Part shown: in pieces, positions 245 to 54,607 of the stretch
Position numbering within the stretch: the stretch's first letter is position 1
How the letters are laid out: every line of letters begins with the position of its first letter
Translations under genes and position numbers: made by a program
Source of the DNA: Patescibacteria group bacterium
GTDB taxonomy: Bacteria > Patescibacteriota > Patescibacteriia > UBA2591 > UBA6264
Length of the DNA: 64,000 bases
Reading direction: 5' to 3'
NCBI GenBank assembly: GCA_016784145.1
Contig: JADHVF010000001.1
Location: 90,367 to 154,366 of the forward strand
Notes under the pieces: model-generated
The model's input: the letters and a program-made list of their open reading frames with translations, nothing else
The model's database searches: none
What the model was told of the DNA's origin: nothing

Positions 245-517
245 TTATTTATTAAATAATTTAGTAACACCAAGGACTTCTTTTGTCATTTGTGTTTTTA
301 GTTTTTCGTTACTTGTCCCCATTGCTTTCTTAAAACAAGTTTTAAGATGGTTTTCCATTAATTTTTGATGAGCTGATTTTAATAGTCCAATAGCAGCTAA
401 ATTTTGTTGCATAATGTTAATGCAATATTCCTTGTTTTCTATCATACTATTAATTTTTGTCATTAGGCCTTGAACCTTTTTAAAATTAACAAGGACTTTC
501 TTTTTTTCATTGGTCAT
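245..517 (-). CDS. csoR: CsoR-family Cu(I)-sensing transcriptional repressor (DUF156)
   Basis: 90 aa. Has the YC motif (Cys32) and H57-x3-C61, i.e. the C-x24-H-x3-C spacing of the CsoR Cu(I) site. No N-terminal His, so it is not RcnR-like. Helical DUF156-like sequence. Confidence 0.8.
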   Translation of the reverse strand: MTNEKKKVLVNFKKVQGLMTKINSMIENKEYCINIMQQNLAAIGLLKSAHQKLMENHLKTCFKKAMGTSNEKLKTQMTKEVLGVTKLFNK

Positions 518-748: not shown

Positions 749-1087
749 TTAATTAACTGCTTGCATGCCTAGATCTGGTTGATTACAATTAATGCAACTT
801 GATCTGTGTCCGCGCCTCATTATGCCGGGGTCAGCACAATCAATGCATTGACCTCTTATTTTGCATATTTCATCAGTCCAGCCAATATGCTTTTCTACAA
901 ATTCAAATGTATCAAGCACTTCATCATTAGTTTCGTCTGAACTTTCTATTTCTACGATTAAGATGGGAATCAATTCGTCGTTATTGCTTGTTTTTAATTC
1001 CTTTGGTATTTGCCAAAGATTAAGCATGGCTTGAATTGTTTCCACGTCTTTTTTGATTTTTTCTATCTCTGTTTTTTCCCGAGGCAT
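749..1087 (-). CDS. Hypothetical acidic protein with a C-terminal Cys-rich (6 Cys) module, possible zinc ribbon
   Basis: 112-aa ORF. C-terminus reads CKIRGQCIDCADPGIMRRGHRSSCINCNQ. Terminator immediately downstream. No family recognised. Confidence 0.45.
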   Translation of the reverse strand: MPREKTEIEKIKKDVETIQAMLNLWQIPKELKTSNNDELIPILIVEIESSDETNDEVLDTFEFVEKHIGWTDEICKIRGQCIDCADPGIMRRGHRSSCINCNQPDLGMQAVN

Positions 1088-1185
1088 TTTTTACTCCTTT
1101 TTTTGTTGTAAGTAACTTATATTACATAAGCATGTATATAAATTTATCTTATCACAAAAAATAAATTTTGTCAAAATAAATTTTT

Positions 1186-1220
1186 ATTGACAAGAGGGCT
1201 TAAAAGTGATATGTTAAGAA
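1186..1220. repeat. Direct repeat copy 1 (35 bp, 33/35 identical to 4117..4151)
   Basis: att[g]acaa[g]agggcttaaaagtgatatgttaagaa. Overlaps the predicted 5' end of the ABC-F ORF. Confidence 0.7.
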
Positions 1221-3001
1221 TATATAATAAATCAAAATCATTTTATATGATAGCCAATAGCAATAATTTTGAATTTAATATCTTGAAAAAGGAAAAAATC
1301 AAAACAAAGGTTTTAAGAGTAGAAAAAATATCAAAATCTTTTAATAATAAAGATCTTTTTAAAGATATTAATTTTACCATGGCTAAAAAACAAAAAAAAG
1401 CTCTTGTTGGAAATAACGGGTCCGGCAAAAGTACTTTATTAAAAATAATGGCAGGGGAAGAAAATTCAGATTTTGGGAGAATTGAGACAAATAATATGAA
1501 AATAGAATATTTGCCACAAGAACTATCAATTAAAAATGATTTAAATTTAAATATTTTAGATTATTTAAAAAAAATAACACATATAATGCAGATAGAAAAA
1601 ACAATGAAAGAATTAGCAGAGGATCTAGCAGATAAAAAAAAATTAAAAGAATACGGAAAATTACAGGAACAGTATGAAAGATTAAATGGATATGACTTTG
1701 AATCAATTGCAGAGATAATCCTATCAGGATTTGGACTAGAGAAATATTTAGATAAAAAAGTAGAAGAGCTAAGTGGAGGAGAGAAATCTAAATTGATGTT
1801 TGTCGGAGCTTTGTTAAGAAGCCCAGACATGTTATTGTTAGATGAACCAACAAGTAATTTGGACTTACAATCAATTATTTGGCTAGAAAACTTTATTAAA
1901 CAAAGTGATATGGCTTGTTTGGTTGTTTCGCATGATAAAATATTTTTAGATAATATTATAGGAGGAACAATTGAAATAGATTCTTATAAAAAAAATATTA
2001 TTGAACAATCTGGTAGTTATTCTGAATTTTTAGAAAGAAAACAAAAAAAAAATGAAAGAGAAAAAAATGAATATAAAAAAGGACAAAAAAAAATTAGTAA
2101 TTTAGAAAAAATTGCTAAAAAGAAAAAACAATGGGCAATACAAGGATCTGGCCAATCTACTAAAGACAAGGATAAATATTTGCGCGGGCACCAAAGAGAT
2201 CGTTCTTCAAAAATGGGGAGCGGAGCAAAAGCTATTGACAGGCAAATTAAAAGAATAAAAGAAACAACGAAACAACCATTTCAAGAAAAAGAATTACAAA
2301 TAAAAATAGAATTTAAAGAAATAAGCACAAAAAATTCAATTCAATTAGATCAACTTAAAGTTGGCTACAAAGATGGGTTTTCATTGGGTCCAATAGATTT
2401 AGATATTAAACACGGAGAAAAGATTGTTTTTGTTGGAGATAATGGAGCTGGTAAAAGTACATTGCTTAAAACAATAGCTCAAAAAATTAAACCAATATCA
2501 GGAAAAATAGAAATAGGCAAGCAATTAAATGTTGGTAATTTTATGCAAAATCATGAAGATTTGCCGTTAGATCAGACAATTTTTTCTTATATTAAAAAAA
2601 ATTCTAATATAAGGGATGATGAAATCCATCGTATATTAAATCATTTTGAATTTCAATCTGATTATATAGATAAAAAAATCAAAAATTTAAGTCCAGGAGA
2701 AAGAACAAAGTTAATTTTAGCAAAGTTTTCAGTAAAAAAAGCGAATGTTTTAATTTTAGATGAACCAACAAATTATCTTGATATTAGAACAATGAAAGCA
2801 ATAGAAATTGCGTTAAAAAATTATGAAGGGACAATTATAATGTCTTCTCATGACCGTTATTTTTTAGAAAAAATAAATCCAGATAAATTTTATTTGGTAG
2901 CAGATAAAAAGGTCAAATATTTATCAGATTATAGTAAACATAGAAAATCAATAAAAAATAAAGTTCAAGGTTTAACTAAAAAAGTACAAAATTTTTTATA
3001 A
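1187..3001 (+). CDS. ABC-F family ATPase (two ABC cassettes with no TM domain; EttA/Uup/ARE-like)
   Basis: First Walker A is GNNGSGKST, first signature LSGGEKSKL, first Walker B LLLDEPTSNLD. Second Walker A is GDNGAGKST, second signature LSPGERTKL, second Walker B LILDEPTNYLD. An ~80-aa K/R/E-rich inter-domain linker separates them, and there is no membrane domain. The start is uncertain: TTG at 1187, ATG at 1211 or ATG at 1247. Confidence 0.85.
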   Translation: MTRGLKSDMLRIYNKSKSFYMIANSNNFEFNILKKEKIKTKVLRVEKISKSFNNKDLFKDINFTMAKKQKKALVGNNGSGKSTLLKIMAGEENSDFGRIETNNMKIEYLPQELSIKNDLNLNILDYLKKITHIMQIEKTMKELAEDLADKKKLKEYGKLQEQYERLNGYDFESIAEIILSGFGLEKYLDKKVEELSGGEKSKLMFVGALLRSPDMLLLDEPTSNLDLQSIIWLENFIKQSDMACLVVSHDKIFLDNIIGGTIEIDSYKKNIIEQSGSYSEFLERKQKKNEREKNEYKKGQKKISNLEKIAKKKKQWAIQGSGQSTKDKDKYLRGHQRDRSSKMGSGAKAIDRQIKRIKETTKQPFQEKELQIKIEFKEISTKNSIQLDQLKVGYKDGFSLGPIDLDIKHGEKIVFVGDNGAGKSTLLKTIAQKIKPISGKIEIGKQLNVGNFMQNHEDLPLDQTIFSYIKKNSNIRDDEIHRILNHFEFQSDYIDKKIKNLSPGERTKLILAKFSVKKANVLILDEPTNYLDIRTMKAIEIALKNYEGTIIMSSHDRYFLEKINPDKFYLVADKKVKYLSDYSKHRKSIKNKVQGLTKKVQNFL

Positions 3002-3073
3002 TTTATTTTTTTAACAAAAATTTAAGCATTGGAGAAATTGTAAAAAAATTAAATAAAAAAAAGAATAATAAAA

Positions 3074-3101
3074 ATCAGAAAAATAAAATTTCTGATTTTT
3101 T
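3074..3101 (+). terminator. AT-rich hairpin plus T-run after the ABC-F gene
   Basis: ATCAGAAA (3074-3081), loop, TTTCTGAT (3089-3096), then TTTTT. Confidence 0.4.
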
Positions 3102-3168
3102 AAAACAAGTAAAAAAAGAGTTAGCCACTCCATCTCAAGGAGGTTATCCAATTCTTGACAAAGAGCTT

Positions 3169-4134
3169 ATGGATGCACCGATTGCAATTGAATTACAAAT
3201 TACAGACAAATGTAATTTAAGATGCAAACATTGTTGTCAGGATAATTATTCAAAAATAATGCCCATGAATAAAATCAAAGAAATTTTGAAGATATTATAT
3301 AAAAAAAATGTTTTTGAAATTAGTTTGGTTGGCGGAGAATTATTTACACATCCAAATATTTGGGATATTTTAGATTTGTGTAATAATTATGATTTTGCAA
3401 TTAACATAATAACTAATGCTACATTGTTAGATAATAAATTCATAAAAAAATTAGCAAAATTCAAAAATATTGTATTTTTAGTTAGTTTGGAAGGCGTTCA
3501 CATGGTTAATGACAAGATAAGAGGAATAGGTGTTTTTAAAAAAGTTGATAAAGTTCTTCAAAATTTAAAAAAACATAATATACATGTAGAAATTTCTACA
3601 ACAATAAGTAAAAATAATATTAATAATTATCAAGAGATAATAGATTATAGTAAGTCGTTAGACATTCCTTGTAATTTTAATTTATTTAAACCATTTCATT
3701 GTAGTCAAAAAAATCTTATACTTGATCCAGACAAATATTTTAATTTTGTTCAAGATATTTTTAGTCAAAGATTAAAAAACAAAGCGAAAATTGGGTTAAC
3801 TAATGCAGCAATTGTTTCTTGTTTAATGTGCGAAAAAGATAGAAATGAATGCAGGGCCACATTGTCTGGATTAACAATAAATGTTGATGGAAAAATGGTT
3901 CCATGCCCTTTTTTAAAATTAGCTGGGTATTATAATAATAATATTTTGCCAACCTTTAATAAAAATTTTTTAAATGCATGGAAAAATAATTTTTTATTTA
4001 TGAAATTTCGGGAAGGAAACATTAAAGAATGTCAAGCTCGATCTTATATTTTTAGTAAAAATATAAATGGACTTGATCCATACGGAATTCAAGAGTTCAA
4101 AAAATATTTAAAACAGATTAACAAAAGGGCTTAA
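3169..4134 (+). CDS. Radical SAM enzyme with C-terminal SPASM/twitch-like Cys cluster
   Basis: N-terminal CNLRCKHCC (CxxxCxxC radical SAM cluster) followed by a GGE motif (LVGGELF). C-terminal CLMCEKDRNEC...VPCPF...C resembles a SPASM auxiliary-cluster motif. Strong GGAGG RBS at 3139-3143. The start may be TTG at 3154. Confidence 0.8.
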   Translation: MDAPIAIELQITDKCNLRCKHCCQDNYSKIMPMNKIKEILKILYKKNVFEISLVGGELFTHPNIWDILDLCNNYDFAINIITNATLLDNKFIKKLAKFKNIVFLVSLEGVHMVNDKIRGIGVFKKVDKVLQNLKKHNIHVEISTTISKNNINNYQEIIDYSKSLDIPCNFNLFKPFHCSQKNLILDPDKYFNFVQDIFSQRLKNKAKIGLTNAAIVSCLMCEKDRNECRATLSGLTINVDGKMVPCPFLKLAGYYNNNILPTFNKNFLNAWKNNFLFMKFREGNIKECQARSYIFSKNINGLDPYGIQEFKKYLKQINKRA

Positions 4135-4151
4135 AAGTGATATGTTAAGAA
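4117..4151. repeat. Direct repeat copy 2 (35 bp)
   Basis: att[a]acaa[a]agggcttaaaagtgatatgttaagaa. Overlaps the stop codon of the radical SAM gene. Flanking sequence differs from copy 1 on both sides. Confidence 0.7.
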
Positions 4152-4270
4152 AAGTTCATTGAATTTTTTAATAATAAAAAAAGATGCTGTTATGAAAATA
4201 TAGCGATTATTTGATATTATTGTAATTTTTAACGCAACATTGTTCTTTGTTTTAGAATATGGAGTTCTGG

Positions 4271-4310
4271 TAAAAAAATCTCCACAAAATTTTTATGGAG
4301 ATTTTTCTTT
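4271..4310 (+). terminator. Rho-independent terminator
   Basis: ATCTCCA (4278-4284), loop, TGGAGAT (4296-4302), then TTTTT. It lies ~140 nt of non-coding sequence after the rSAM stop codon. Confidence 0.5.
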
Positions 4311-4343
4311 ACTTTATTATAATATTTTTGTTATAATTAAAAC

Positions 4344-5054
4344 ATGTTTTTAAAGAAAGCAAAAAAAGTCAAAGTATTAATAGGGAAATTGATATCTAAA
4401 AGCAAGCAACCTAAAAAAATAAAAATAACAATTTTTAGTTCAGGCATACTTGGCTTAATCGCCCTTGTTTTAATTGTTGGAATGTATTCTAGGATGACAA
4501 CAGAACAAAATGTTATTAATAATAGAATTGATAAATTAGTATTAGAAATAAAAGAATTAAAAAACAGGACAATTACTTCAAGTCAAAAAATATTTAGAGA
4601 ACCAGCCACAATAATAGTTGATAAAAATGGTTTATGGGTTGTAGATCCAGCTGATTGTCCATATTTTGATTTGTCAATTTTCCCAGGGCAAAATTGTAAA
4701 CCAAATCAAATTTGCGGAAAAAGTAATAAAATAGCTCAATGTTACAATATGAATAAATTAATTCCCCCAAAATCAATTGCAATTTCAAATAAAAATTGGG
4801 CAGATTTTTTATATGATAATAAATTAGCCAATGGAGGATTTTTAATTAATTGTTATGCACCCATAGACAATAATGCGCCCTTTTGTGATAATAATGAAAA
4901 ATTTTGGTGTGACAGGAGTGATTTTTGTTACGACCAACAAAAAAGAGAAACTATTTGTTTGCCAGGGGGTTGGGGGAAATTTAAGTGCGGTGATTGTTTA
5001 GATGGATATGAAGATAAATTTGCTTCTGATATTTGTGAAATAAAAGAAAAATAA
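4344..5054 (+). CDS. Membrane-anchored Cys-rich (12 Cys) extracytoplasmic protein, hypothetical
   Basis: Basic N-terminus, one TM helix (IFSSGILGLIALVLIVGMY), then ~190 aa containing 12 Cys (CPYF, NCKPNQIC, QCY, NCY, FCD, WCD, FCY, ICL, KCGDC, ICE). Confidence 0.6.
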   Translation: MFLKKAKKVKVLIGKLISKSKQPKKIKITIFSSGILGLIALVLIVGMYSRMTTEQNVINNRIDKLVLEIKELKNRTITSSQKIFREPATIIVDKNGLWVVDPADCPYFDLSIFPGQNCKPNQICGKSNKIAQCYNMNKLIPPKSIAISNKNWADFLYDNKLANGGFLINCYAPIDNNAPFCDNNEKFWCDRSDFCYDQQKRETICLPGGWGKFKCGDCLDGYEDKFASDICEIKEK

Positions 5055-5241: not shown

Positions 5242-5353
5242 TTTTTCCTCCGTTGATTGATTTTAAAGATGGCTTAATAATATCAATTATATTGTTTTTT
5301 GTCAAGATTGACGAGTATTTACTTTAAGCATAATATTCTTTATAATATTTAAC

Positions 5354-5755
5354 ATGATAATTAGTTCAAAAAAGTTTGGCAAGATTTTAGTGGTAATGGT
5401 GGCTATTTTTTTGATGTTTAATTATTCTAATTTAATTTCTAATAAAAATAATGAGCAAACACAAGTAAATTCAAATAAAAATAATGGGGAGGCAAGATTA
5501 AATGTGGCTGGGAAAATTTTAGGAGAAAATATTGAAATAGGTGGCATTAGAATAACTGATAATCCAGGCATAAATAAAGTTTTGACTGACTTAGATGGAA
5601 CTGGCACTGGCGTGTGGAAAGAAGTTGATGAGATAAAGATAACTCAACAAAAAATTGATGACAGGATTATAAATATTTTGATTATATTTTTGTCTACTTG
5701 TTTAGTGCTCTATCTCTTAAAAGATAGACAAAATAATAATAGATTTAAATTTTAA
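5354..5755 (+). CDS. Hypothetical protein with N- and C-terminal TM helices
   Basis: 133-aa ORF. TM segments near residues 10-30 and 105-125, with a G/T-rich middle. Confidence 0.45.
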   Translation: MIISSKKFGKILVVMVAIFLMFNYSNLISNKNNEQTQVNSNKNNGEARLNVAGKILGENIEIGGIRITDNPGINKVLTDLDGTGTGVWKEVDEIKITQQKIDDRIINILIIFLSTCLVLYLLKDRQNNNRFKF

Positions 5756-6255: not shown

Positions 6256-8752
6256 ATATATTAAAATGTTTGAAACAATAACAATTACTTCTAACATGAT
6301 AGGGATAGCTTTAATAGGAATAGCCAGCATGGTTATTTTTATTATTTTAATTAAATATTTAAGAAAAATTAGTGCTTTTAAGTTTTCTTTTGAGAGAATT
6401 GTTTTATTGATTACAATTCCAAAACATTCAGGAGACAAGAACAAAGATAACCAGCAAAAATCAGCTAAAGAAATGTTAAAGCCAATGGAAGATTTTTTCA
6501 GTATTGTGGCTGGACTCAAGGCGCAGAAAGGCATAAAATCATATCTTTTTGGTAGAAGTGATGCTTTTTCATTTGAAATTGTATCTGATAAAGACGGCTT
6601 AATTTCTTTTTATTTTGTTATTCCAAAAGAATCTCAACAATTTTTTGAACAACAAATTCAAGCACAATATCCAAGTGCTAATGTAGAACAAGTGTCTGAT
6701 TATAATATTTTTATTCCCCAGGGAGAAGTAACAAGTTCTTATTTAAAACTAAAAAATTATTCAATGTTTCCTATAAAAACATACTTAAAATCAGAAACCG
6801 ATCTTTTAATTGCAGTAATAAATTCTCTAAGTCAAATTCCAAAAGAAGATGCAGCTTGTGTTCAATTTGTAGTTCAGTCAGCTAAAAAAGGTTGGCACAA
6901 TTGGGGAAGCAAGGTTGCTAGAGAGATGCAACAAGGCAAAAAGTTAGATAAAGCTATTTCAGTTGCCATGACTGGTCGTTTTATGTCTTTGATAAATAAT
7001 CTTTTAAGCTTGTTTGGAGGAGTAAAACAGTCAACAGAACAACCCAAAGAACATAAGCTTTCTCCAATGGATCAAGAGGTTATTAAATCATTGGAAGAAA
7101 AATCAAGCAAGGCAGGCCTTGATGTTAATATTAGAATTATTGTTTCTTCAAAGACAGTTCAAAAAGCAGAGATGTATTTAAATAATATTATAAATTCATT
7201 TGCTCAATTTACAACTTATGAATATGGTAATGGTTTTCTCCCAAACAAGAAAAAGCAAGCCAAAACAATTCATGACTTTATATACAGATTTCTAGATAGA
7301 AAAAGAGCTTGTTTGCTTAATGCAGAAGAAATGGCTAGTGTTTTTCATTTACCAACAGCTGAAATACAGACTCCAAATATAAATTGGCTTTTAGCAAAAA
7401 AAGCCCCGGGACCAATAAATATTCCTCAGCAAGGATTATTCTTGGGATATAATATTTTTAGGGGGGAGAAAACACCAATTAGAATTAAAAGAGGGGACAG
7501 AAGAAGACATATGTATGTTATTGGCATGACAGGAGTAGGTAAATCATGGTTTATTGAAGGACTATGCATGCAAGATATTGTTAATGGGGAAGGGGCTTGT
7601 TTTATTGACCCGCACGGAGACGCAATTGACCATCTTTTGGAAAGAATCCCTAAACAACGGGCAGAAGATGTTATTTTATTTGACCCGGCTGATATTGAGA
7701 GACCTTTAGCACTTAACTTGCTTGAATATGATACTCCTGAACAAAAAACATTTGTTGTTAATGAAGTAATGAATATTTTTGACAAACTATATGATTTAAA
7801 AGCAACCGGGGGGCCAATGTTTGAACAATATTTTAAAAATGCATGTTTACTAATAATGGATGACCCTGAATCAGGCTCAACCTTATTAGAGGTCCCAAGA
7901 GTTTTGGCTGATGAAGAATTTAGAAAAATGAAATTAGCAAAATGCAAGACAGAAGTTGTTAAGGATTTTTGGGAAAAACAAGCTCTTAAAGCTGGTGGAG
8001 AGGCTTCTTTACAAAACATGGTTCCGTATATTTCTAGTAAACTAACCCCTTTTATTGCTAATGATTTTATGAGGCCCATTATTTCACAACAAAAAAGTAG
8101 TTTAAATTTTAGTGAAGCCATGAATAATAAAAAAATTATTTTAGTAAAATTGTCAAAAGGGAAGATAGGGGATAATAATGCTTATTTATTAGGCATGATT
8201 TTAATCGCCAAACTTTTAATGGCTGCCCTGGGAAGAGGGGGCATCCCAGAAGAAGAAAGGAATGATTTTTATTTATACATTGATGAGTTTCAAAATTTTT
8301 TAACTGATAGCATGGAAACGATTTTATCAGAAGCTAGAAAATATCGTTTATGTTTAACCATTGCCCATCAATACATAGGCCAGTTAGTAAAGGCAGGGGA
8401 TACTAAATTTAAAGATGCTATTTTCGGTAATGTGGGGACAAAAGTTGCTTTTAGAATTGGAGTTGATGATGCAGAGGCCTTAACAAAAGAGTTTGCGCCT
8501 GTTTTTAGTGACAGTGATTTCTTGAATATGCCAAAATATACAACTTATACTAAACTGTTGATTGATAATGCTAATCCCCCTGGTTTTAGCATGGCCACGG
8601 TACCATTTGATGATATTCCAGGGGTTGGAGATGCTAATCCAGCCATGGCTGAAGCCATTGCTAAAATTTCCCGGCTTAAATATGGCAAAGACAGAACCAT
8701 AATAGAAAGAGAAATAGCAGACAGGGTTAATAAATTAAAAGAACTTGAATAA
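6230..8752 (+). CDS. VirD4/TraG/TraD-family (type IV coupling-protein-like) P-loop ATPase with N-terminal TM and a ~400-aa extension
   Basis: N-terminal TM helix. Walker A is GMTGVGKSW. A DPHGD block follows, and the Walker B-like region is YLYIDEFQNF...HQYIGQL, typical of TrwB/VirD4/TraG (FtsK-HerA superfamily). The start may be the ATG at 6266. Confidence 0.7.
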   Translation: MLTSIKKNKYIKMFETITITSNMIGIALIGIASMVIFIILIKYLRKISAFKFSFERIVLLITIPKHSGDKNKDNQQKSAKEMLKPMEDFFSIVAGLKAQKGIKSYLFGRSDAFSFEIVSDKDGLISFYFVIPKESQQFFEQQIQAQYPSANVEQVSDYNIFIPQGEVTSSYLKLKNYSMFPIKTYLKSETDLLIAVINSLSQIPKEDAACVQFVVQSAKKGWHNWGSKVAREMQQGKKLDKAISVAMTGRFMSLINNLLSLFGGVKQSTEQPKEHKLSPMDQEVIKSLEEKSSKAGLDVNIRIIVSSKTVQKAEMYLNNIINSFAQFTTYEYGNGFLPNKKKQAKTIHDFIYRFLDRKRACLLNAEEMASVFHLPTAEIQTPNINWLLAKKAPGPINIPQQGLFLGYNIFRGEKTPIRIKRGDRRRHMYVIGMTGVGKSWFIEGLCMQDIVNGEGACFIDPHGDAIDHLLERIPKQRAEDVILFDPADIERPLALNLLEYDTPEQKTFVVNEVMNIFDKLYDLKATGGPMFEQYFKNACLLIMDDPESGSTLLEVPRVLADEEFRKMKLAKCKTEVVKDFWEKQALKAGGEASLQNMVPYISSKLTPFIANDFMRPIISQQKSSLNFSEAMNNKKIILVKLSKGKIGDNNAYLLGMILIAKLLMAALGRGGIPEEERNDFYLYIDEFQNFLTDSMETILSEARKYRLCLTIAHQYIGQLVKAGDTKFKDAIFGNVGTKVAFRIGVDDAEALTKEFAPVFSDSDFLNMPKYTTYTKLLIDNANPPGFSMATVPFDDIPGVGDANPAMAEAIAKISRLKYGKDRTIIEREIADRVNKLKELE

Positions 8753-8756
8753 AATT

Positions 8757-9842
8757 ATGGTTATTTATAGAAAATATCGACCACAAAAATTTAAAGATGT
8801 GATTGGACAAGCCAATATTATTGAGATTTTACAAGGGCAAATAAAACAAGATAAAATAGCTCATGCTTATTTATTTACAGGCCCAAGAGGGCTAGGAAAA
8901 ACAACCATTTCTCGCTTAATCGCTAAAGCAGTAAATTGTCAAACAAGAAAAAAGGGAGAATCAGAACCATGCAATAAATGCTCAAATTGTCAAAACATCA
9001 CTCAAGCAAGATTTCTTGATTTAATAGAGCTTGATGCAGCTTCACATACAGGAGTTGATAATGTTAGGGAAAATATTATTTCAATTAGTCGTATTCCGCC
9101 ATCCGCTGGAAAATATAAAATATTTATTATTGATGAATGTCATATGCTTAGCAAGTCAGCTTTTAATGCCTTGTTAAAAACATTAGAAGAACCACCTGCT
9201 AATGTTATTTTTATTTTGGCAACCACGGAAATTTTTAAACTACCTGATACAATTATTTCAAGATGTCAGAGATTTGACTTGGCAAAAGTTTCTATTGATG
9301 AAATTATTAAAAGATTAGCTAAAATTGTTAAAGCAGAAAAAATTAGAGTTAATCCTCAAGTATTAGAATCAATTGCTATTAGAAGTGAAGGATGTGTCAG
9401 GGATGCTGAAAGTTTATTAAATCAGGTATTAGCTATTGATACTAAAAAAATAACAGCCAAACAAGCAGAATTAGTAATTCCGTTGGCTCAATCAGGATTG
9501 TTATTTGAGTTTTCATCTGTAATATTTAAAAAAAATGATGCTCGTGCAATTAAAATGATTAATGATTTTATAGATAAAGGAATGAATGTTGAACAATTTA
9601 ATACAGAATTGATTGAGTTTTTAAGAAGAATTATGCTTATAAAAATTGGCACTGTAAAACAGAGTGTTTTTTGGAAATATGATGAACAATTTTTCAAAAA
9701 AATGACTAAACTTGCCAAAGAAGTTGAATTAAATGATTTAATTTTATTTATAGAAGAGTTTATCAAAGCAAAAGTGCAATTCAGATACAATGAAATCGCA
9801 CAATTGCCTTTAGAATTAGCAGTTTTAAAAATTTGTAATTAA
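8757..9842 (+). CDS. dnaX: DNA polymerase III subunit gamma/tau (short, gamma-like)
   Basis: YRPQKFKDVIGQ, GPRGLGKTT, Zn module CQTRKKGESEPCNKCSNC, DEC box, SRCQ. 361 aa from the ATG at 8757; the ORF track begins at a TTG at 8745. Confidence 0.85.
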   Translation: MVIYRKYRPQKFKDVIGQANIIEILQGQIKQDKIAHAYLFTGPRGLGKTTISRLIAKAVNCQTRKKGESEPCNKCSNCQNITQARFLDLIELDAASHTGVDNVRENIISISRIPPSAGKYKIFIIDECHMLSKSAFNALLKTLEEPPANVIFILATTEIFKLPDTIISRCQRFDLAKVSIDEIIKRLAKIVKAEKIRVNPQVLESIAIRSEGCVRDAESLLNQVLAIDTKKITAKQAELVIPLAQSGLLFEFSSVIFKKNDARAIKMINDFIDKGMNVEQFNTELIEFLRRIMLIKIGTVKQSVFWKYDEQFFKKMTKLAKEVELNDLILFIEEFIKAKVQFRYNEIAQLPLELAVLKICN

Positions 9843-9955
9843 AAATATAATATGAGTGATTTTTTATTAGAAATAATTAGAGGAGTAATTATTTCGAGAA
9901 TTTTTCTCATATTTTTATAACTGGTAAAAAATTAGAAATAGAATAAATATATTGT

Positions 9956-10026
9956 TCGGGGGTCGTCTAATGGCAGGACATTAGGTTCTGGTCCTAAGAA
10001 TCGGGGTTCGAGTCCCTGCCCCCGAG
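9956..10026 (+). tRNA. tRNA-Gln (anticodon CUG)
   Basis: Manual cloverleaf. Acceptor TCGGGGG/CCCCCGA, D-stem GTCT/GGAC, anticodon stem TTAGG/CCTAA with loop TTCTGGT (anticodon CTG), T-stem CGGGG/CCCTG with TTCGAGT loop, discriminator G. Confidence 0.85.
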
Positions 10027-10121
10027 TTTAGATATTTTAAATTTTTTTAATAAAAAAGACTGGATTTTGATTATTTATGTGTTATAATTAATTTATATAA
10101 TTAGTATTAATTTTTAATCTT

Positions 10122-11629: not shown

Positions 11630-13855
11630 ATGAATAAAAAAAATATCTTAACAATTATAAAAAAAGAGTTATCAGCTTATTTTAATAATCCAACTGCTTA
11701 TGTTATTGTGGCTGCTTTTTTATTTATGGCCGAGTTTTTATTTTTCAAACAAGCATTTCTTATTGGACAAAGTTCTTTGCAATCTTTATTTTTTTTATTG
11801 CCATGGCTGTTTCTTTTATTTATACCAGCTATTACCATGGGCTCAATCTCGCAAGAAAAAAATCAATCAACTCTTGAGTTCCTTTTAACAAAACCTTTAA
11901 AAGAAATAGACCTTATTATTGGAAAGCTTTTATCATCTTTAATTTTTGTAACAATAAGTTTATCATTTTTTATTCCCATAGCAGCTAGCTTTTCTACTTT
12001 GGGAAATTTTGATTGGGGAGCATTTGTAACACAATATTTAGCAGCAGTATTTTTAGCAGGTGTTTTAATAAGTTTAGGTATATTTGTTTCAAGTTATTTT
12101 GACAATCAAATTTCATCATTTTTAATTTCTGCTATATCAAGTTTTTTTATTATAATTATTGGATTTGACATTATTACAGCTAGTTTGCCTTATTGGTTGG
12201 CAAATATTACAGGAGAATTGTCTGTTCTAACCCACTTTACTTCAATGTCTCGTGGAGTTATTGATTTTAGAGATGTCTGGTATTTTATATCTTTTGTATC
12301 GTTATTTTCAGCTTTGGCTTATTTGCGTCTAATGAAGAACAAATATAGCAATCAAGCCAAGAGATACAGGACATATAAAACAGGTATTTTATTATTTATT
12401 GGCATAGTCATCTTTACAAATATTATTGGTGCTCGCTTGCCTGGTAGAATTGATTTAACTCAAGATAAAATTTTTACATTAACAACCACAACCAAAAACA
12501 CACTGAAAGATTTAGATGATATTGTTAATATCACATTATATGTATCAAAAGATTTGCCTGCTCGTGTTAAGCCAGTTATGAATGAAATAAAATATACTTT
12601 AAATGATTATAAAAAACTAGCAAAAGGGAATATTCAGGTTGATTTAAAAAATCCAACAGTTAATCCAGCGGTTGTTAATGAAATGAGGTCATATGGAGTT
12701 AATGAAATGCAATTTAATGTTATTGAACAAGAGGAATTAAAAATAAAAAAAGGAACATTAGGAATTGTGGTTTCTTATGGTTCAAAATACGAAACAATAC
12801 CATTTGTTCAAGATACAAGAGATTTGGAATATAATTTAACTAAATTTATAACTAAATTAACAAATAAAAATAAAAAGAAAATTGTTTTTTTTGATGGTTA
12901 TGGGTCAAAAAAAATAGAAGACTTTAGCTTAATAAGACAAGAACTTGAACAACAATTTGAAGTTAGTAGTTTTGAAATTAATCTTGAAACACCAGAAGTT
13001 CCAAGTAATACTAACTTGTTAATTATTCCGGGAGTGTCAGAGCAAATTGATGAATCAGTTTTGCAAGGGCTTGATAACTATGTTAAAAACAAAGGAGCGA
13101 TTATGGTTTTATTGGACGGCGTTTTTATAAATCCTCAGGCACAGCAGATTAACAAAAATGAGACCAATTTGATATTATGGCTAAAAGATAATTACGGGAT
13201 AACATTAAATAATGATTTGGTTTATGATTTGCAGTCAAACGAGATGGTTTCTTTTGGTGGAGGATTTTTTAGCTATAGTTTACCATACCCATTATGGGTT
13301 AGGGGATTACCATTAGACAATATTCCAATCACTAATAGAATCTCTAATATTGTTTTGCCTTGGACCAGTTCTTTAAAGGTAAATGAAACAAAGGCATTGG
13401 AACAAGGATTTAATCCAATGGTTTTATTTACTACAAGTCAGTCAGCCGGGTCTATAAAAGAAAATTATAATATAGCTCCTGACCAAACTTTTCCTAAGGA
13501 TAATTTAGCTAAACAAGATTTAATAATTGCTTTAGAACCAAAGCAATTAAAATCAAATTTAGGCAGGATTATAGTGGTTCCAGATTCTGACTTTCTTTCT
13601 AATGCTCATATTCAGGGAAGTATTCAAAACAGCGCTTTTGCGCTTGAATCATCTTCATGGCTAAGTCAAGAGATATCATTGGCTGGTATAAAAATAAAAC
13701 AAAAAAATAATAATAAACTTTTATTTCAAAATCAAAATCAACCAAAATTAATTAAATATATTAATTTATCAATTAGTATCATAATCCCTTTTATAATTGG
13801 GTTTACTTATTTATTAAAAAGACGCAACAAGCAACAACTAACTTATTTGTCTTAA
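11630..13855 (+). CDS. Fusion of ABC-2 permease (GldF-like) and GldG-like ABC-type uncharacterized transport system domain
   Basis: N-terminal ~240 aa has 6 TM helices (ABC-2 permease). The remainder matches the GldG-like pattern (RIDLTQDKIFTLTTTT...ITLYVS...) and ends in a C-terminal TM anchor. Confidence 0.65.
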   Translation: MNKKNILTIIKKELSAYFNNPTAYVIVAAFLFMAEFLFFKQAFLIGQSSLQSLFFLLPWLFLLFIPAITMGSISQEKNQSTLEFLLTKPLKEIDLIIGKLLSSLIFVTISLSFFIPIAASFSTLGNFDWGAFVTQYLAAVFLAGVLISLGIFVSSYFDNQISSFLISAISSFFIIIIGFDIITASLPYWLANITGELSVLTHFTSMSRGVIDFRDVWYFISFVSLFSALAYLRLMKNKYSNQAKRYRTYKTGILLFIGIVIFTNIIGARLPGRIDLTQDKIFTLTTTTKNTLKDLDDIVNITLYVSKDLPARVKPVMNEIKYTLNDYKKLAKGNIQVDLKNPTVNPAVVNEMRSYGVNEMQFNVIEQEELKIKKGTLGIVVSYGSKYETIPFVQDTRDLEYNLTKFITKLTNKNKKKIVFFDGYGSKKIEDFSLIRQELEQQFEVSSFEINLETPEVPSNTNLLIIPGVSEQIDESVLQGLDNYVKNKGAIMVLLDGVFINPQAQQINKNETNLILWLKDNYGITLNNDLVYDLQSNEMVSFGGGFFSYSLPYPLWVRGLPLDNIPITNRISNIVLPWTSSLKVNETKALEQGFNPMVLFTTSQSAGSIKENYNIAPDQTFPKDNLAKQDLIIALEPKQLKSNLGRIIVVPDSDFLSNAHIQGSIQNSAFALESSSWLSQEISLAGIKIKQKNNNKLLFQNQNQPKLIKYINLSISIIIPFIIGFTYLLKRRNKQQLTYLS

Positions 13856-28937: not shown

Positions 28938-30435
28938 TATTTTTTATTTTAATTAAAATTTGATTGAGTATATTTAATACTTTTTCTTTGCCAAAAATTT
29001 CAGCAATTTGTTCTGGTGGAGGAGATTGTTTTTGCTTGGTTAAAGCTACTCTAAGAGGCCAAAAAAATTCTCCTAAACTTGAACAATTAGCTGTCCTTTT
29101 TTTTAAAACTTTCCTGATTTTTTTAGCAGTAAACAATATTTTAGGAATGCTTGATAAATCTTGCTTAATTTGTTTCAAATTAATCGCTACATCATTGATA
29201 TCCATTTTTTTCCATAAAAGCATTTCTAAATCATATTTTAAGTTATCAACAAAAAAGAATTTACTTAAATCCCCTATTTCATTTAAATGCTTAATCCTGT
29301 CTTGCTCTAATTTTACAATTTTTTTTATCCTTTTAAAATTTATTAATTTGCCTGTAGCTTTTATCCTATATTTTTGTTTGTATTTGACTATTAATTCATC
29401 TTCAATCAAATAAGGAATACATTTGGTTGTTAATTTTTTTAATTTCATTTTTCTAATATAATGACCATTCATCCAATTAAGTTTTTTTAAATCAAAAATA
29501 GCGCCTGCTTTTTGAATATCTTTTAAGAAAAAATTATTAATTATTTGTTTTAAACTCAATATTTCTTTGTCATTATTGGGGTTCCATCCAAGTAATACTA
29601 AAAAATTAATTAAAGAGTTTTTTAAATATCCTTTTTTCAAATAATCTTCAACAGATACGCTTGCTTCTCTTTTTGATAATTTTGAACGATCAGTATTAAG
29701 AATAAGAGGCATGTGAGCAAATATTGGAATATTCCATGCCAATGCTTTATAAACCAGAATATGCTTTGGAGTTGATGACAACCACTCTTCTCCTCTAATA
29801 ACATGCGTAATCCCCATTAAATGGTCATCTATTACATTTGCTAGATGATAAGTCGGCCATTTGTCAGATTTTAATAAAATAGGGTCATCAACGTGTTTTA
29901 AATCAAATTTAACCTTACCTCTAATTTTGTCTTTGAATTCAATACTCCCCTGCTCGGGTACTTTTAATCTAATAACATATTGGTCTCCTCTTTTTAATTT
30001 TATATCTATTTCTGCTTGGGTTAGGTGTTTACATCGACGGTCATATTTTGGAGCTTGCTTCACAGCAATTTGTTTGGCTCTCATTTCATCCAGGTCATTT
30101 TTTGAACAAAAACAATAATATGCTTTATTTTTATCTATTAACTGGTAAGCTATTTTTCTATATGTCTCGACCCTAGTTGACTGATAATAAGGCCCTTTAT
30201 CCCATTTTAGTCCCATTTTTTTTAAAATTTTAATTAATTTTTTGTCAGCCCCTGGGATGTATCTCTCTCTGTCTGTATCCTCTATACGCAAAATTAACTT
30301 ACCTTTATTTTTTTTAGCATAAAGCCAATTATAAAGATAAGTCCTAAATCCTCCTATATGTAAATAGCCTGTTGGGCTAGGAGCAAAACGTACTTTGACC
30401 ATAAAAATATGTAATTTATTATTTAGTGCTTTCAA
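28927..30435 (-). CDS. gltX: Glutamate--tRNA ligase
   Basis: HIGH motif (PSPTGYLHIGG) and KLSKR (KMSKS-type), 502 aa. Confidence 0.9.
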   Translation of the reverse strand: MKALNNKLHIFMVKVRFAPSPTGYLHIGGFRTYLYNWLYAKKNKGKLILRIEDTDRERYIPGADKKLIKILKKMGLKWDKGPYYQSTRVETYRKIAYQLIDKNKAYYCFCSKNDLDEMRAKQIAVKQAPKYDRRCKHLTQAEIDIKLKRGDQYVIRLKVPEQGSIEFKDKIRGKVKFDLKHVDDPILLKSDKWPTYHLANVIDDHLMGITHVIRGEEWLSSTPKHILVYKALAWNIPIFAHMPLILNTDRSKLSKREASVSVEDYLKKGYLKNSLINFLVLLGWNPNNDKEILSLKQIINNFFLKDIQKAGAIFDLKKLNWMNGHYIRKMKLKKLTTKCIPYLIEDELIVKYKQKYRIKATGKLINFKRIKKIVKLEQDRIKHLNEIGDLSKFFFVDNLKYDLEMLLWKKMDINDVAINLKQIKQDLSSIPKILFTAKKIRKVLKKRTANCSSLGEFFWPLRVALTKQKQSPPPEQIAEIFGKEKVLNILNQILIKIKNNEK

Positions 30436-31300
30436 CTCTTTGCCAAATTTTTGCCAGTTTTGGTTGAAATATTTTTATTTTTAAAAAAATTAAAAACCAT
30501 AAATATATTCTAGCCAAAAAAAGTACAAAAGTCCAAAGAAATTCTTTAATTGTTTTAGGAAAAAATAAGAATAAAATTACTCCATCTTTTATTTCTTGCC
30601 AAAATGTTCTAGTTTTTAATTTATGATTAGTTGTTTGTATAAATTTTTGTTTATATCCTCCTGTTGACCTAAGTTTTTGCTTCATCCAGTCCTTAAAATT
30701 ATCAGGATACTTAACATAAACAATTGATTTAGGAGAATATGATATGTTATATCCCTTTGATTTGATGATTTGCGTTATTAATCCATCTTCTGCTAGAACA
30801 TTTTTTGGAATTTGGCTAATTATATTTCTAAATGAATATAAATATCCTGAACAAGGAAAGTTTGTTTTTGTCATTCTCCACTTATGAGCCGCATGAGTTA
30901 AAAAATGAGACCAATATCCTAGCATTTGTTTTCTTGAGTTAAGACTAACGGGCCTGCCAGTAATTGCTCCTATTTTTTTATCTTTAAATGGCCTTATAAG
31001 AGATTCAAGCCCTTTATTATCAATATAAACATCTCCATCAGTTAAAATTAAAATATCTCCTTTTGCTTTTTTAAAGGCGAGATTAAGGGCAGCTGGTTTA
31101 CCTTCTGCTTTGTCTTTTAAATATTTAATATATTTATATCTTTGAGATAATTTAGTCACAATTTTAGCTGTTTGCTTGTCAGGACCAATAACTAAAATTT
31201 CAATTTTATAATTTTTATCTAATCGGCTACGCAATATTTCATCAATTGCTTTTAAAAGAGTTCCCTCTTCTCTGCAGGTTGTAATAATAATAGAAATCAT
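30419..31300 (-). CDS. Family 2 glycosyltransferase
   Basis: MISIIITTCRE start, DGD (DxD) motif ILTDGDVYI, C-terminal TM. Confidence 0.8.
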   Translation of the reverse strand: MISIIITTCREEGTLLKAIDEILRSRLDKNYKIEILVIGPDKQTAKIVTKLSQRYKYIKYLKDKAEGKPAALNLAFKKAKGDILILTDGDVYIDNKGLESLIRPFKDKKIGAITGRPVSLNSRKQMLGYWSHFLTHAAHKWRMTKTNFPCSGYLYSFRNIISQIPKNVLAEDGLITQIIKSKGYNISYSPKSIVYVKYPDNFKDWMKQKLRSTGGYKQKFIQTTNHKLKTRTFWQEIKDGVILFLFFPKTIKEFLWTFVLFLARIYLWFLIFLKIKIFQPKLAKIWQRVESTK

Positions 31301-31445
31301 TTTATTTTTCTTTCAATATTATTTTATAATTATAGCATAATTACAAAATAATCAAAATGCTTTACCAAGTTAAAATATTTTAGTAAAATATAAAATAATT
31401 CTTAATTTAAAAATTTTAATTTTCTTTTCTTAGCACTCTATGTCC

Positions 31446-31473
31446 TTGACTGCTAATATTATTATGTTATAAT
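31446..31473 (+). promoter_or_regulatory. Sigma70 promoter TTGACT-N16-TATAAT, 7 nt before the clpB ATG (leaderless predicted)
   Basis: TTGACT 31446-31451, TATAAT 31468-31473, ATG at 31481. Confidence 0.45.
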
Positions 31474-31480
31474 ATATATT

Positions 31481-34096
31481 ATGAATAACTTTACTATCAA
31501 AGCGCAGGAAGCAATTCAAACAGCGCATAATATAGCAATTGAAAACAATCAACAACAAGTTGATGTAAGTCATCTAATACTTGCCCTGCTGACACAAACA
31601 GATGGTGTTATTTTAGCTGTCTTAAAAAAAATGGAAATAGACATAGCTAAATTAAAAATAAAAGCTGATAATTTAATTAAATCAGCTCCAAAAATTAAGC
31701 AAGAACAAACTGCTAATGTTGCAGAAATGTTTATTTCTCCCTTGCTTCAAAAAACTATATTCATGGCATCAAGAGAAGCAAAAAAAATAAAAGATGAATA
31801 TGTTAGTACAGAACATTTTTTTCTAGCAATTCTTACAATCCCCTCAACATTAAAAGATGCATTAAATAAAGAATTTCAAATTGATTATGAGAAAATATTA
31901 AAAATATTAGCAGATGTTCGTGGTTCTGAAAGAATAACTGAGCCAGACCCTGAGAGCAAGTATCAAGCATTAGAAAAATATACTGTAAATTTAACAAAAA
32001 TGGCTCGTAACGAAGAAATTGATCCAATTATTGGTAGAGATAATGAAATAAGAAGGATTATTCAAGTATTGAGTAGAAGAAAAAAAAATAATCCTGTTTT
32101 AATTGGTGAAGCAGGTGTTGGCAAAACAGCTATTGCAGAAGGATTAGCCCAAAGAATTGTAGCCAAGGATGTTCCAGAGTCATTAAAAAATAGAGAATTA
32201 GTTTCGCTTGACCTAGGAGGAATGATTGCTGGTACAAAATTTAGAGGAGAATTTGAAAGCCGATTAAGGGCAGTTTTAAGAGAAATAAAAAAATCAGGGA
32301 ATTATATCCTTTTTATTGACGAAATGCATACTTTGGTTGGTGCAGGTGGAGCAGAAGGGTCAATTGATGCTTCAAATATGTTAAAACCAGCCTTGGCCAG
32401 AGGAGAATTGCATTGCATAGGGGCAACAACCTTAAAAGAATACCAAAAACATATTGAAAAAGATGCAGCTTTAGAACGTCGATTTCAACAAGTTTACGTG
32501 AAAGAACCAAATATAGAAGATGCAATTACTATTTTGCGAGGGATAAAAGAAAAATATGAAATACATCATGGCGTAAGAATCACGGACAAGGCAATTATAG
32601 CTGCTGTTAATCTATCAAAAAGATATATAAGTGATCGATTTTTGCCAGATAAAGCAATTGATTTAATGGATGAAGCCTGTTCAGCACTAAGAATGGAAAT
32701 AGAAAGCCAGCCAGAAGAATTAGATAAATTGCAACGAAAATATAGACAAATTGAATTAGAAATTGCTGTTTTAAAAAAAGATAAAAAAGCCAAACAGCAA
32801 AAAGCAAAGTTAAACAAAAAATTAGCAAATTTAAGAGAAAAAATTAAAGCAATTAAAATTAGATGGAAGACAGAAAAAGACATTATTACTAAAATCCATA
32901 AAACAAAAGAAACTATTGATAAATTAAAACAAGAATCTGAAATTGCTGAAAGAGAAACAAAATTACAAAAAGTAGCCGAAATAAAATACGGATTAATCCC
33001 AGAATTAAATAAAAAAATAAAAACATATCAATCCAGATTAAAAAAGATTCAAAAAAATGAAAGAATATTAAAAGAAGAAATTGGAGAAGAAGAAATAGCT
33101 AAGATTGTATCTAGGTGGACAGGAATTCCAGTATCTAAAATGATGCAAGCAGAGAGCGAAAAACTAGCCAACATGGAACAAGAGATTCATAAAAGATTAA
33201 TTGGTCAAGCAAAAGCTGTCATGGCCGTTGCTAATGCAATTAGAAGGTCTATGGCAGGAATATCAGAAGAAAACAAACCAATTGGTTCATTTATTTTTCT
33301 TGGTCCAACAGGGGTTGGCAAAACAGAATTAGCAAAAAGTTTAGCAGAATTTTTATTTAATACTGAAGAAGCGTTAGTTCAAATAGATATGTCAGAATAT
33401 ATGGAAAGTCATGCTGTCTCAAAAATAATTGGGTCCCCTCCTGGTTACATAGGATATGATGAGGGGGGGCAATTAACAGAAATTGTTAGAAAAAGACCGT
33501 ATTCTGTAATTCTTTTTGATGAAATAGAAAAAGCCCATCCAAAAATATTTAATATTTTATTACAAATATTAGACGAAGGAAAGCTTACTGACGCTAAAGG
33601 CAGAACAGTTAATTTTAAAAATACTGTTATTATAATGACTTCGAATATCGGAACTGATTTAATAAAAGATTATTCATCAAAATCTAATATTGGATTTGAA
33701 TCAGAAAAAACCAAGCAAACGCAAGGAGAAATAATAGAGGAAAAGATTTATGAATCCCTAAGAAAAACATTTAAACCAGAATTTTTAAATAGAATTGACG
33801 AAACAATTATATTTCATACTCTCGCAAAAAAACATATTAAAAAAATTGTTGACTTGCAATTAAAAAAAGTAGCTATTAGATTAAAAACAAAAAAGCTTAA
33901 ATTAGTGGTTACAGATAAGGCAAAAGATCTTTTAACAGAGCTTGGGTATGATATAACATATGGAGCTAGGCCGTTAAAAAGAGTAATTCAAAAAGAAATT
34001 CTTGACAAACTTGCTTTAAAAATGATTAGTGGACAAGCAGACAAAAAAAGAGTCTTTAGGGTTGATGTAAGGAATAAAAAAATATTTATAAAATAA
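31481..34096 (+). CDS. clpB: ATP-dependent chaperone ClpB
   Basis: Clp N domain, two AAA+ modules ([16 protein letters not shown]) and a long middle coiled-coil, 871 aa. Confidence 0.9.
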
Positions 34097-34101
34097 ATTT
34101 A

Positions 34102-35484: not shown

Positions 35485-35488
35485 AATT

Positions 35489-54604: not shown

Positions 54605-54607
54605 AAT

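Follow-up and report, generated by a model that had tools for sequence, protein, structure and literature searches.

A 64-kb stretch of a Patescibacteria (candidate phyla radiation, CPR) metagenome-assembled genome (MAG) with a GC content of ~29%, hereafter called the window, contains a 35-bp direct repeat whose two copies bracket a gene for an ABC-F ATPase and a gene for a radical-SAM (rSAM) peptide maturase, both on the plus strand. Copy 1 (ATTGACAAGAGGGCTTAAAAGTGATATGTTAAGAA) is located at 1186-1220 and copy 2 (ATTAACAAAAGGGCTTAAAAGTGATATGTTAAGAA) at 4117-4151, both read on the plus strand, in direct orientation and with an offset of 2931 nt. The copies are identical at 33 of 35 positions, confirming the pair reported in an earlier reading of this DNA (hereafter the original prediction), and both mismatches fall within the leftmost 9 nt of the repeat. 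The 100-nt flanks of the two copies align no better than shuffled sequence, which means that the repeat is sharply bounded and that, as had been stated, the sequence outside both copies differs. The segment between the copies has a GC content of 24.8% against a window mean of 29.2%, the lowest in the window (1.3rd percentile), in agreement with a compositional check that the original prediction had proposed.

When the window was scanned with <=3 mismatches allowed, the two copies were the sole matches, and no further copy of the 35-mer was found in an extra 6.8 kb upstream (contig L001). Over the ~71 kb covered in total, the repeat is thus not the common dispersed element that the original prediction had named as grounds for giving up its reading. 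Half-site searches of the 64 kb, with mismatches allowed, gave a few two-mismatch chance matches, all inside coding regions, and a dispersed repeat family was rejected because the searches with the full and the half repeat gave such matches only. An exact 22-mer of the repeat had no match in the JGI metagenomes and none in IMG/VR. A GC content of ~29% makes short AT-rich matches common, and chance similarity or an assembly artefact might in principle produce such a pair. This explanation is effectively refuted: none of 100 dinucleotide-preserving shuffles of the window contained a match to the 35-mer (<=3 mismatches), the pair is recovered by self-BLAST with E = 8.7e-08, the repeat holds a G-rich block (AGGGC), and independent assemblies (SPAdes, Logan and an NCBI MAG; >10 samples) span both copies in an identical arrangement at 99.7-100% identity, which rules out an artefact. 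That the repeat exceeds chance expectation was therefore rightly claimed. A structural variant suggested by contig ends (L187 and L189 end at 1230; L010 starts at 4099) was also considered, and these ends were judged to be coverage gaps; L187 and L189 carry a common single-nucleotide polymorphism and probably stem from one low-coverage sample, and a hypothetical 1230|4099 junction is inconsistent with de Bruijn branching.

The first bracketed gene (1247-3001, plus strand, start set by homology) encodes a 584-aa ABC-F ATPase of the ribosomal-protection-like, antibiotic resistance (ARE) type. The protein has two ABC_tran stretches and scores 427.5 bits against the NCBIfam model NF000355 ('ribosomal protection-like ABC-F', cutoff 380), by which it is predicted to belong to the ARE-type ABC-F proteins; its closest homologues are 59-62% identical. 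Three start codons are candidates, namely TTG 1187 in the longest open reading frame (ORF), ATG 1211 from one gene caller and ATG 1247 from the homologues. The window protein then begins with MIANSNNFEFN and a homologue with MMSRESNFEFN, and in L099 (L numbers denote the contigs and loci compared) an in-frame stop lies just upstream of the start. Copy 1 had been described as the 5' end of the ABC-F ORF, which holds formally for the frame opening at TTG 1187. Since the homologues begin at the position of ATG 1247, however, copy 1 is wholly non-coding and belongs to the promoter/5'-untranslated region.

The second gene (3004-4134, plus strand; frame open from 3004, first ATG at 3169) encodes a 5'-truncated rSAM peptide maturase with a SPASM/twitch-like C-terminus. 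Its Radical_SAM domain scores 68.9 bits with the CNLRCKHC motif intact, and its SPASM match, at 19.2 bits, stays below the cutoff of 21.5. The homologues are 400-420 aa long and carry an N-terminal PqqD-like recognition domain, the recognition element (RRE) of ribosomally synthesized and post-translationally modified peptides (RiPPs). The window protein aligns from homologue residue ~42 (FFNK...) onwards, the first ~41 codons being gone and the ABC-F stop standing in their place. Compared with L099, ~418 nt are missing at a deletion junction at 2990-3010 (plus strand), a stretch that in L099 holds the intergenic spacer, the gene for the precursor peptide and the opening ~41 rSAM codons with the RRE/PqqD N-terminus. 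At the other end, the first 18 nt of copy 2 encode the last five rSAM codons and the stop (INKRA*; TAA at 4132-4134), so the stop codon lies within copy 2 as described before. Truncation of the rSAM gene by copy 2 was considered and rejected, because the C-terminus aligns to the homologue ends at full length; the C-terminal tails of the homologues vary in length, and hence neither the original copy nor the direction of duplication can be deduced from them. No precursor-like ORF (ESGCC..SCGG) was found anywhere in the 64 kb, and the RiPP arrangement of a precursor beside its maturase is thus absent here. With the precursor gene and the maturase N-terminus gone and the ABC-F gene intact, the window holds a decayed cassette. 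The 376-codon rSAM frame is still open, suggesting that the deletion is recent or that the truncated protein is still used, and the intact ABC-F gene is probably the part still under selection.

Relatives of the window segment 1247-4134 show what this cassette comprises elsewhere. A unit of precursor, rSAM and ABC-F genes recurs in nine independent Patescibacteria loci (L011, L015, L018, L019, L020, L193, L195, L197 and L099/L100), in four gene orders and in unrelated neighbourhoods; it occupies, for example, 5840-8932 in L011, 5821-8890 in L015 and 4857-8154 in L099. The precursor, present in the nine relatives, is a 51-65-aa ORF with the core E[S/A/T]GCC[F/L][T/R]SCGG. The order is precursor-rSAM-ABC-F in L011, L015, L020 and L195, precursor-rSAM with a convergent ABC-F gene in L193, ABC-F-precursor-rSAM in L018, L019 and L099/L100, and precursor-ABC-F-rSAM in L197. 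The window has the gene order of its closest relative, L099 (ABC-F 60% and rSAM 58% identical), and a model derived from L011 and L015, in which the window order is a circular permutation of rSAM->ABC-F, was weakened by the ABC-F-precursor-rSAM order in L018, L019 and L099. No NCBIfam model matched the cassette maturase at cutoff, the precursor peptides had no credible match in the family libraries, and in the literature searched we found no paper joining the precursor, rSAM and ABC-F features. ABC-F proteins are known as self-resistance or signalling factors in antibiotic clusters (PMC8546547, PMC12421871). Judged from its gene content, the cassette may be an undescribed RiPP-like system with ABC-F immunity and a ribosome-targeting product. 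A KsgA/Erm-family rRNA adenine dimethylase (PF00398) adjoins the cassette in L099 (8194-8889) and in L011 (3995-4906), and it may be a second ribosome-directed protection gene.

By self-comparison, the cassette, sometimes together with one extra gene, is bracketed by direct repeats of 35-239 nt in six of the ten loci. Besides the 35-nt repeat of the window (94% identity), these measure 239 nt in L011 (93%), 185 nt in L019 (88%), ~68 nt in L020 (81%), 39-44 nt in L195 (82-85%) and ~195 nt in L197 (83%). Their sequences are unrelated between genomes, and no motif common to the flanking repeats of different genomes was found. The recurrence of the unit at unrelated loci and its genome-specific direct repeats bear out the proposal that the two genes of the window form a cassette. 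The left repeat copy of L011 coincides with the 3' end of a 241-aa gene that is intact, and the right one is a displaced fragment that carries a stop of its own. The L011 repeat occurs three times (5418-5656, 9035-9273 and 12863-12929) in a repeat-cassette-repeat-cassette-repeat arrangement, with the partial third copy after a second rSAM-ABC-F pair, and its second and third copies start with a promoter-like TTGACG-17-TATAAT site. The two copies of L019 are the 5' end of a 374-aa gene, itself intact, and a stop-containing pseudo-copy of its first 59 codons. The order 'intact gene - block - gene fragment' in L011 and L019 is the pattern that single-crossover integration of a circle carrying a gene piece would leave. 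As a control, repeat pairs at 2.5-6 kb spacing were collected from 932 kb of other Patescibacteria loci; 22 pairs, some overlapping, were found in 15 loci, or about one independent pair per 50-60 kb, and the chance of a given 3-5-kb block being bracketed is estimated at ~1-2%.

The window repeat has the anatomy of a sigma-70-type core promoter, extending from about -36 to -2. In copy 1, a -35 hexamer TTGACA (1187-1192), a 17-nt spacer and a TG-extended -10 hexamer TATGTT (1210-1215) are followed by five more bases, and the copy ends 26 nt before ABC-F ATG 1247; by hexamers, spacer, orientation and proximity to a gene start it qualifies as a putative sigma-70-type promoter, scoring 10/12 plus TG and pointing at the ABC-F gene. 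Copy 2 carries the promoter-like TTAACA-17-TGnTATGTT, also with a TG-extended -10, scores 9/12 and overlaps the 3' end of the rSAM gene. AT-rich DNA such as this yields many promoter-like matches (55 observed vs 39 expected in 6 kb), and we take the anatomy as supporting evidence for promoter activity, not as proof of it. An alternative -10 element (TATAATAAAT at 1223-1232, plus strand, with TATAAT at 1223-1228) lies 2 nt to the right of copy 1, and the same 10-mer occurs upstream of the ABC-F homologue in L099; with a second possible -10 just outside it, the repeat may supply the -35 region alone. A strong -35 hexamer lies 1-4 nt downstream of the start of the flanking repeat in three genomes, those of the window, L197 and L011 (repeat starts at window 1186, L197 3669, L011 9035), the promoter scores at these starts being 10/12 plus TG in the window and 12/12 and 11/12 in L197 and L011, and similarity falls abruptly at this promoter-side edge. 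Selection for a promoter before both the block and the displaced gene accounts for the retention of the repeat and leaves the sharp edge, for which we have no mechanism, unexplained. The core-promoter-like character of a repeat outside the ABC-F coding sequence, the 5' truncation of the rSAM gene and the loss of the precursor were all overlooked in the original prediction.

After copy 2 come ~120 nt in which no credible ORF is found, and then a strong intrinsic-terminator-like hairpin (AAAAAUCUCCA...UGGAGAUUUUU) with a U-run (4270-4312, plus strand), the likely end of the ABC-F/rSAM transcript, so that the non-coding stretch and the terminator reported earlier are indeed present. Such an arrangement could reflect a regulatory duplicate kept by selection, in which both copies are promoters or sites of one regulator and the bracketing is incidental. 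Copy 1 would then drive the ABC-F and rSAM genes, and copy 2 either a short transcript (~4153-4310) or, through attenuator read-through, the 236-aa gene to its right. The match of both copies to a sigma-70 promoter with an extended -10 fits this explanation, as do the small RNA- or leader-like anatomy of copy 2, ~120 nt and terminator, the frequent occurrence in the control Patescibacteria loci of repeated motifs common to consecutive intergenic regions, and the L197 and L011 flanking repeats, which open with a promoter scoring 12/12 or 11/12 and precede the next gene. Selection for a promoter, however, would not conserve 16 of the 17 spacer bases, an identity that points to a recent common origin of the copies. 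Moreover, the RNA of 4152-4312 is not unusually stable (z = -1.7) and belongs to no Rfam family, a promoter-like signal separate from the repeat directly precedes the ATG of the 236-aa gene, and no further full or half copies exist in the 64 kb. We therefore consider a regulatory origin of the pair rather unlikely.

Two other RNA-level candidates were examined and rejected. A structured RNA or riboswitch found no support, as Rfam gave no match at the gathering threshold or at E<=1 within 1000-4500, the fold of 4152-4312 was not unusually stable, and nothing was obtained for the L197, L195 and L011 repeats either. Leader-peptide attenuation of the ARE ABC-F gene through a mini-ORF within the repeat (GAGGG-7-GTG ATA TGT TAA) was dropped; upstream of this mini-ORF there is no plus-strand promoter, and no attenuator hairpin precedes ATG 1247.

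The genomic position of the cassette differs between related genomes. L099/L100 share a GT2(-)...ClpB-460aa-LigB/Memo synteny with window positions 30419-36253 (30.4-36.3 kb). Between GT2 and ClpB they carry ~6 kb that comprises the cassette together with LigT, two ORFs and a KsgA/Erm-type RrnaAD methyltransferase. At this position the window shows no more than a 180-nt spacer, indicating that the cassette sits at different loci in the two genomes. No repeats were found around the L099/L100 insertion. Relatives with p165-VirD4-DnaX synteny (VirD4 <=69% identical) have neither the cassette nor the window's flanking ORFs. In the search for an empty site through the flanks, the 236-aa flank proved to be an ORFan and the VirD4-anchored relatives shared only p165-VirD4-DnaX with the window. 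The synteny comparison suggested by the original prediction thus showed the cassette to be absent from the syntenic position in relatives and recovered no clean empty site. The uniform arrangement that would have spoken against mobility is found in all sampled same-species strains, which carry both copies, and not in other genomes, where the cassette lies at other loci. The closest ABC-F homologue (62%) is encoded by L098 (1-6904; GCA_030656375 JAUSOG010000713), whose first and last 141 nt are identical, making it a 6.76-kb circular element. L098 further carries Fic, a GNAT acetyltransferase and two unknown ORFs, repeated elements of 50-100 nt with GGGGACTGTCCCC hairpins stand between its modules, and its binning as 'Bacteroidales' is probably a mis-binning.

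These observations bear on the proposal that the copies are attL/attR-type cores, which would here have to be served by a recombinase acting in trans (an integrase elsewhere, an Xer-type enzyme as for integrative mobile elements exploiting Xer (IMEX), or an integron-like one) and would allow the segment to loop out as a 2931-bp circle. Direct repeats do bracket an accessory block and have unique sequence on their outer sides, the confinement of the mismatches to the left 9 nt fits a crossover to their right, and the differing loci in related genomes and the repeat-separated modules of the circular contig with the closest ABC-F homologue (62%) are what such an element would show. The repeat also contains TATGTTAA, the conserved core of the XerD arm of dif; by base composition, however, TATGTTAA alone is expected ~16 times in the window. 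Pfam gave no match to an integrase, transposase or resolvase in the scanned window ORFs, as the original prediction had stated for integrases and transposases, and the precomputed Pfam matches from about -8 to +17 kb, among them those of L001 from -6.8 kb to +14 kb, contained none either. There is no tRNA at the repeat site, and a tRNA target for the insertion was rejected because the window's only tRNA is at 9955-10027. The flanking repeats of other genomes have no motif in common with the 35-mer or with each other, the cassette boundaries of relatives (at the family level) fall at other sequences, and the sampled strains show no polymorphism, with no empty site or circle found. Thus, of the attL/attR claim the direct repeats at both junctions stand, whereas a recombinase, a tRNA, a conserved target and a common core are missing, and we regard att cores as improbable.

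We tentatively favour, as the leading explanation though one that falls somewhat short of probable, that the 35-bp repeat is a junction duplication from the recombinational insertion or rearrangement of the cassette, and that copy 1 now serves as the ABC-F promoter or as a part of it. Insertion or rearrangement of the ABC-F/precursor/rSAM cassette would leave a short stretch at both ends of the block, either by single-crossover (Campbell-type) integration of a circular intermediate through short homology or by an equivalent duplication-type insertion; a site-specific recombinase encoded by the cassette is unlikely. Copy 1 would now act as the ABC-F promoter or its -35 region, and copy 2, overlapping the rSAM stop, would face only the ~120-nt untranslated stretch and the terminator. 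In later decay, the precursor gene was lost together with the recognition domain at the maturase N-terminus, while the ABC-F gene was kept. Both the mechanism of insertion and the direction of duplication are what we infer from this arrangement.

Several points weigh against such a junction duplication. A homology of 35 bp is near the lower limit for RecA-dependent recombination. Among same-species contigs no empty site, deletion variant or circular junction was recovered, all being near-identical with both copies. The flanking repeats in relatives are heterogeneous, and none was found at L015, L018, L099 and L193, two of these four having short flanks. Among the control repeats are arrays of regulatory motifs, terminators and a miniature inverted-repeat transposable element (MITE), and several are located beside VirD4. 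Extra repeat copies lie nearby in L197 and L020, from which it follows that some flanking repeats may be ordinary dispersed intergenic repeats.

The closest rival to the junction duplication, which we nevertheless hold to be unlikely, is the remnant of a tandem duplication, in which a 2931-bp unit (e.g. 1221-4151) was duplicated head-to-tail and one copy was then deleted except for 35 bp at the junction. The structure is exactly 'one unit + 35 bp', with the right edge as the duplication junction and the left edge as the deletion endpoint, and two events suffice. Tandem amplification is frequent for resistance and immunity genes under dosage selection, L011 has two successive rSAM-ABC-F pairs, and the gene orders in the family are circularly permuted (precursor-rSAM-ABC-F, ABC-F-precursor-rSAM and precursor-ABC-F-rSAM), as duplication followed by loss would give. 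Against these stand the need for an extra, arbitrary deletion that stopped at the upstream edge of a promoter, and the occurrence of 'block + short duplicate' in five other genomes, each of which would demand the same two-step history. In addition, the flank alignment revealed no other trace of a second unit in 1088-1185 or 4152-4343.

Under the favoured junction duplication, the repeat is of an ordinary kind, namely a scar left by insertion or rearrangement that overlaps a promoter, and the surrounding cassette is the more interesting lead. A compact cassette that pairs a Cys-rich precursor and an rSAM maturase with an ABC-F protein suggests that Patescibacteria, which are ultra-small and depend on hosts, make or resist ribosome-targeting peptides. 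Being shuffled, relocated and often bracketed by genome-specific duplications without a recombinase of its own, it also makes a case for accessory-gene movement in reduced genomes. The window would represent an end state, with its biosynthetic part decayed and its resistance gene kept. A bolder reading, which we think doubtful, takes the precursor/rSAM/ABC-F unit for a mobile Patescibacteria cassette without a recombinase that travels as a small circle resembling L098, duplicates a promoter-sized or larger piece of its target, and thereby supplies a promoter both to itself and to the displaced gene, the 35-mer pair still being a functional substrate for loop-out. If this were true, an undescribed ribosome-targeting RiPP with ABC-F immunity would be its corollary.

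To the left of copy 1 lies a divergent 112-aa Cys-rich ORF (749-1087, minus strand) with a candidate promoter on the minus strand at 1174-1146, followed further left by a copper-related block and csoR, likewise on the minus strand. The sign of the GC skew and the orientation of the genes both change near 1.1 kb, where the Cys-rich ORF and the ABC-F gene diverge. A near-perfect palindrome (ATACCTATACCCATGGTATAGGTAT) at 545-569, 30-50 nt upstream of csoR (245-517, minus strand), resembles a CsoR operator and is a candidate for one. On the right lies the 236-aa ORFan (4344-5054, plus strand), whose own TTTACT-18-TATAAT signal ends 7 nt before its ATG, and beyond it are two small ORFs, a VirD4-like coupling protein and DnaX. 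The ATGs of the 236-aa ORF and of a 133-aa ORF both lie 7 nt beyond the end of a TATAAT (window 4332-4346 and 5341-5356), and neither ORF has a Shine-Dalgarno sequence, which suggests leaderless mRNAs. In L113, L118 and L121, short iterated motif arrays (TTACGGAT, ATTCGTA and AATCTGTAC) recur in the intergenic regions on either side of VirD4-like genes, and these may be shared regulator-binding arrays. L158, a related Patescibacteria contig, contains a 191-nt MITE-like element twice (4004-4194 and 8087-8277; 97% identity) with terminal inverted repeats TTAGGACTTACGCG...CGCGTAAGTCCTAA. Elsewhere in the window, a 771-aa ORF without a Pfam match (41892-44207, minus strand) contains tandem repeats at 43781-44164 and 41997-42296, a set with a period of 114 nt (80-92% identity) and a pair of 177 nt (88%), and ParB and ParA genes are encoded at 53747-55387 on the minus strand.

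Compared with known systems, the repeat differs clearly from a transposon target-site duplication (2-14 bp, with inverted termini and a transposase), as it is 35 bp long and has no inverted termini inside it at the junctions, in line with the original prediction. Like the attL/attR sites of genomic islands, its copies are imperfect direct repeats around a compositionally deviant accessory segment, standing at both junctions and with mismatches clustered on one side. Unlike those sites, they come without an integrase or other recombinase in or next to the element, without a tRNA, tmRNA or conserved gene end as target, without a core common to genomes and without an observed empty site or circle.

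Sedentary chromosomal integrons and clusters of attC sites lacking integron-integrases (CALINs), with attC repeats such as the Vibrio cholerae repeats (VCRs), resemble the present loci in having promoterless cassettes between repeats that are alike within a genome and unlike between genomes, and the repeat-cassette-repeat-cassette-repeat arrangement of L011 recalls them. attC sites measure 55-141 nt and form an imperfect palindrome R''(RYYYAAC)...R'(GTTRRRY). In the 35-mer, GATTAAC...GTTAAGA fits at 6/7 positions each and spans 33 nt, with no L''/L' arms and no IntI; the attC length, proper R''/R' cores and paired-strand symmetry are lacking, and several of the repeats consist of host-gene or promoter sequence. 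The dif site is a single 28-nt site at the replication terminus, composed of an XerC arm, a 6-nt spacer and an XerD arm. Compared with its consensus, the match is confined to TATGTTAA in the XerD arm, the XerC arm agrees at ~5/11 positions, the spacer does not fit and there is no inner palindrome; gene orientation and skew at the repeat locus are divergent, not convergent as for a dif-type site.

Duplication-amplification scars near resistance genes share with the window the structure of one unit plus a short piece of a second and an ABC-F resistance or immunity gene inside, and differ in that every strain seen here has a single unit and an extra deletion is needed. For Campbell-type integration, the differences are the 35-bp homology, the lack of an identified circular donor or donor genome and the absence of a plasmid backbone from the block. 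The likeness consists in a block bracketed by duplicated homology, in the intact gene versus fragment in L011 and L019, in copies that differ by a few per cent, as those of donor and recipient would, and in the fact that no element-encoded recombinase is needed. Finally, the clusters with ARE-type ABC-F self-resistance proteins (LmrC, OleB, CarA, TlrC and VarM, among others; PMC8546547, PMC12421871) are those for macrolides, lincosamides and streptogramins in Actinobacteria, whereas the partner here is a predicted radical-SAM RiPP system of Patescibacteria; common to both is an NF000355-family ABC-F protein tightly linked to biosynthetic genes.

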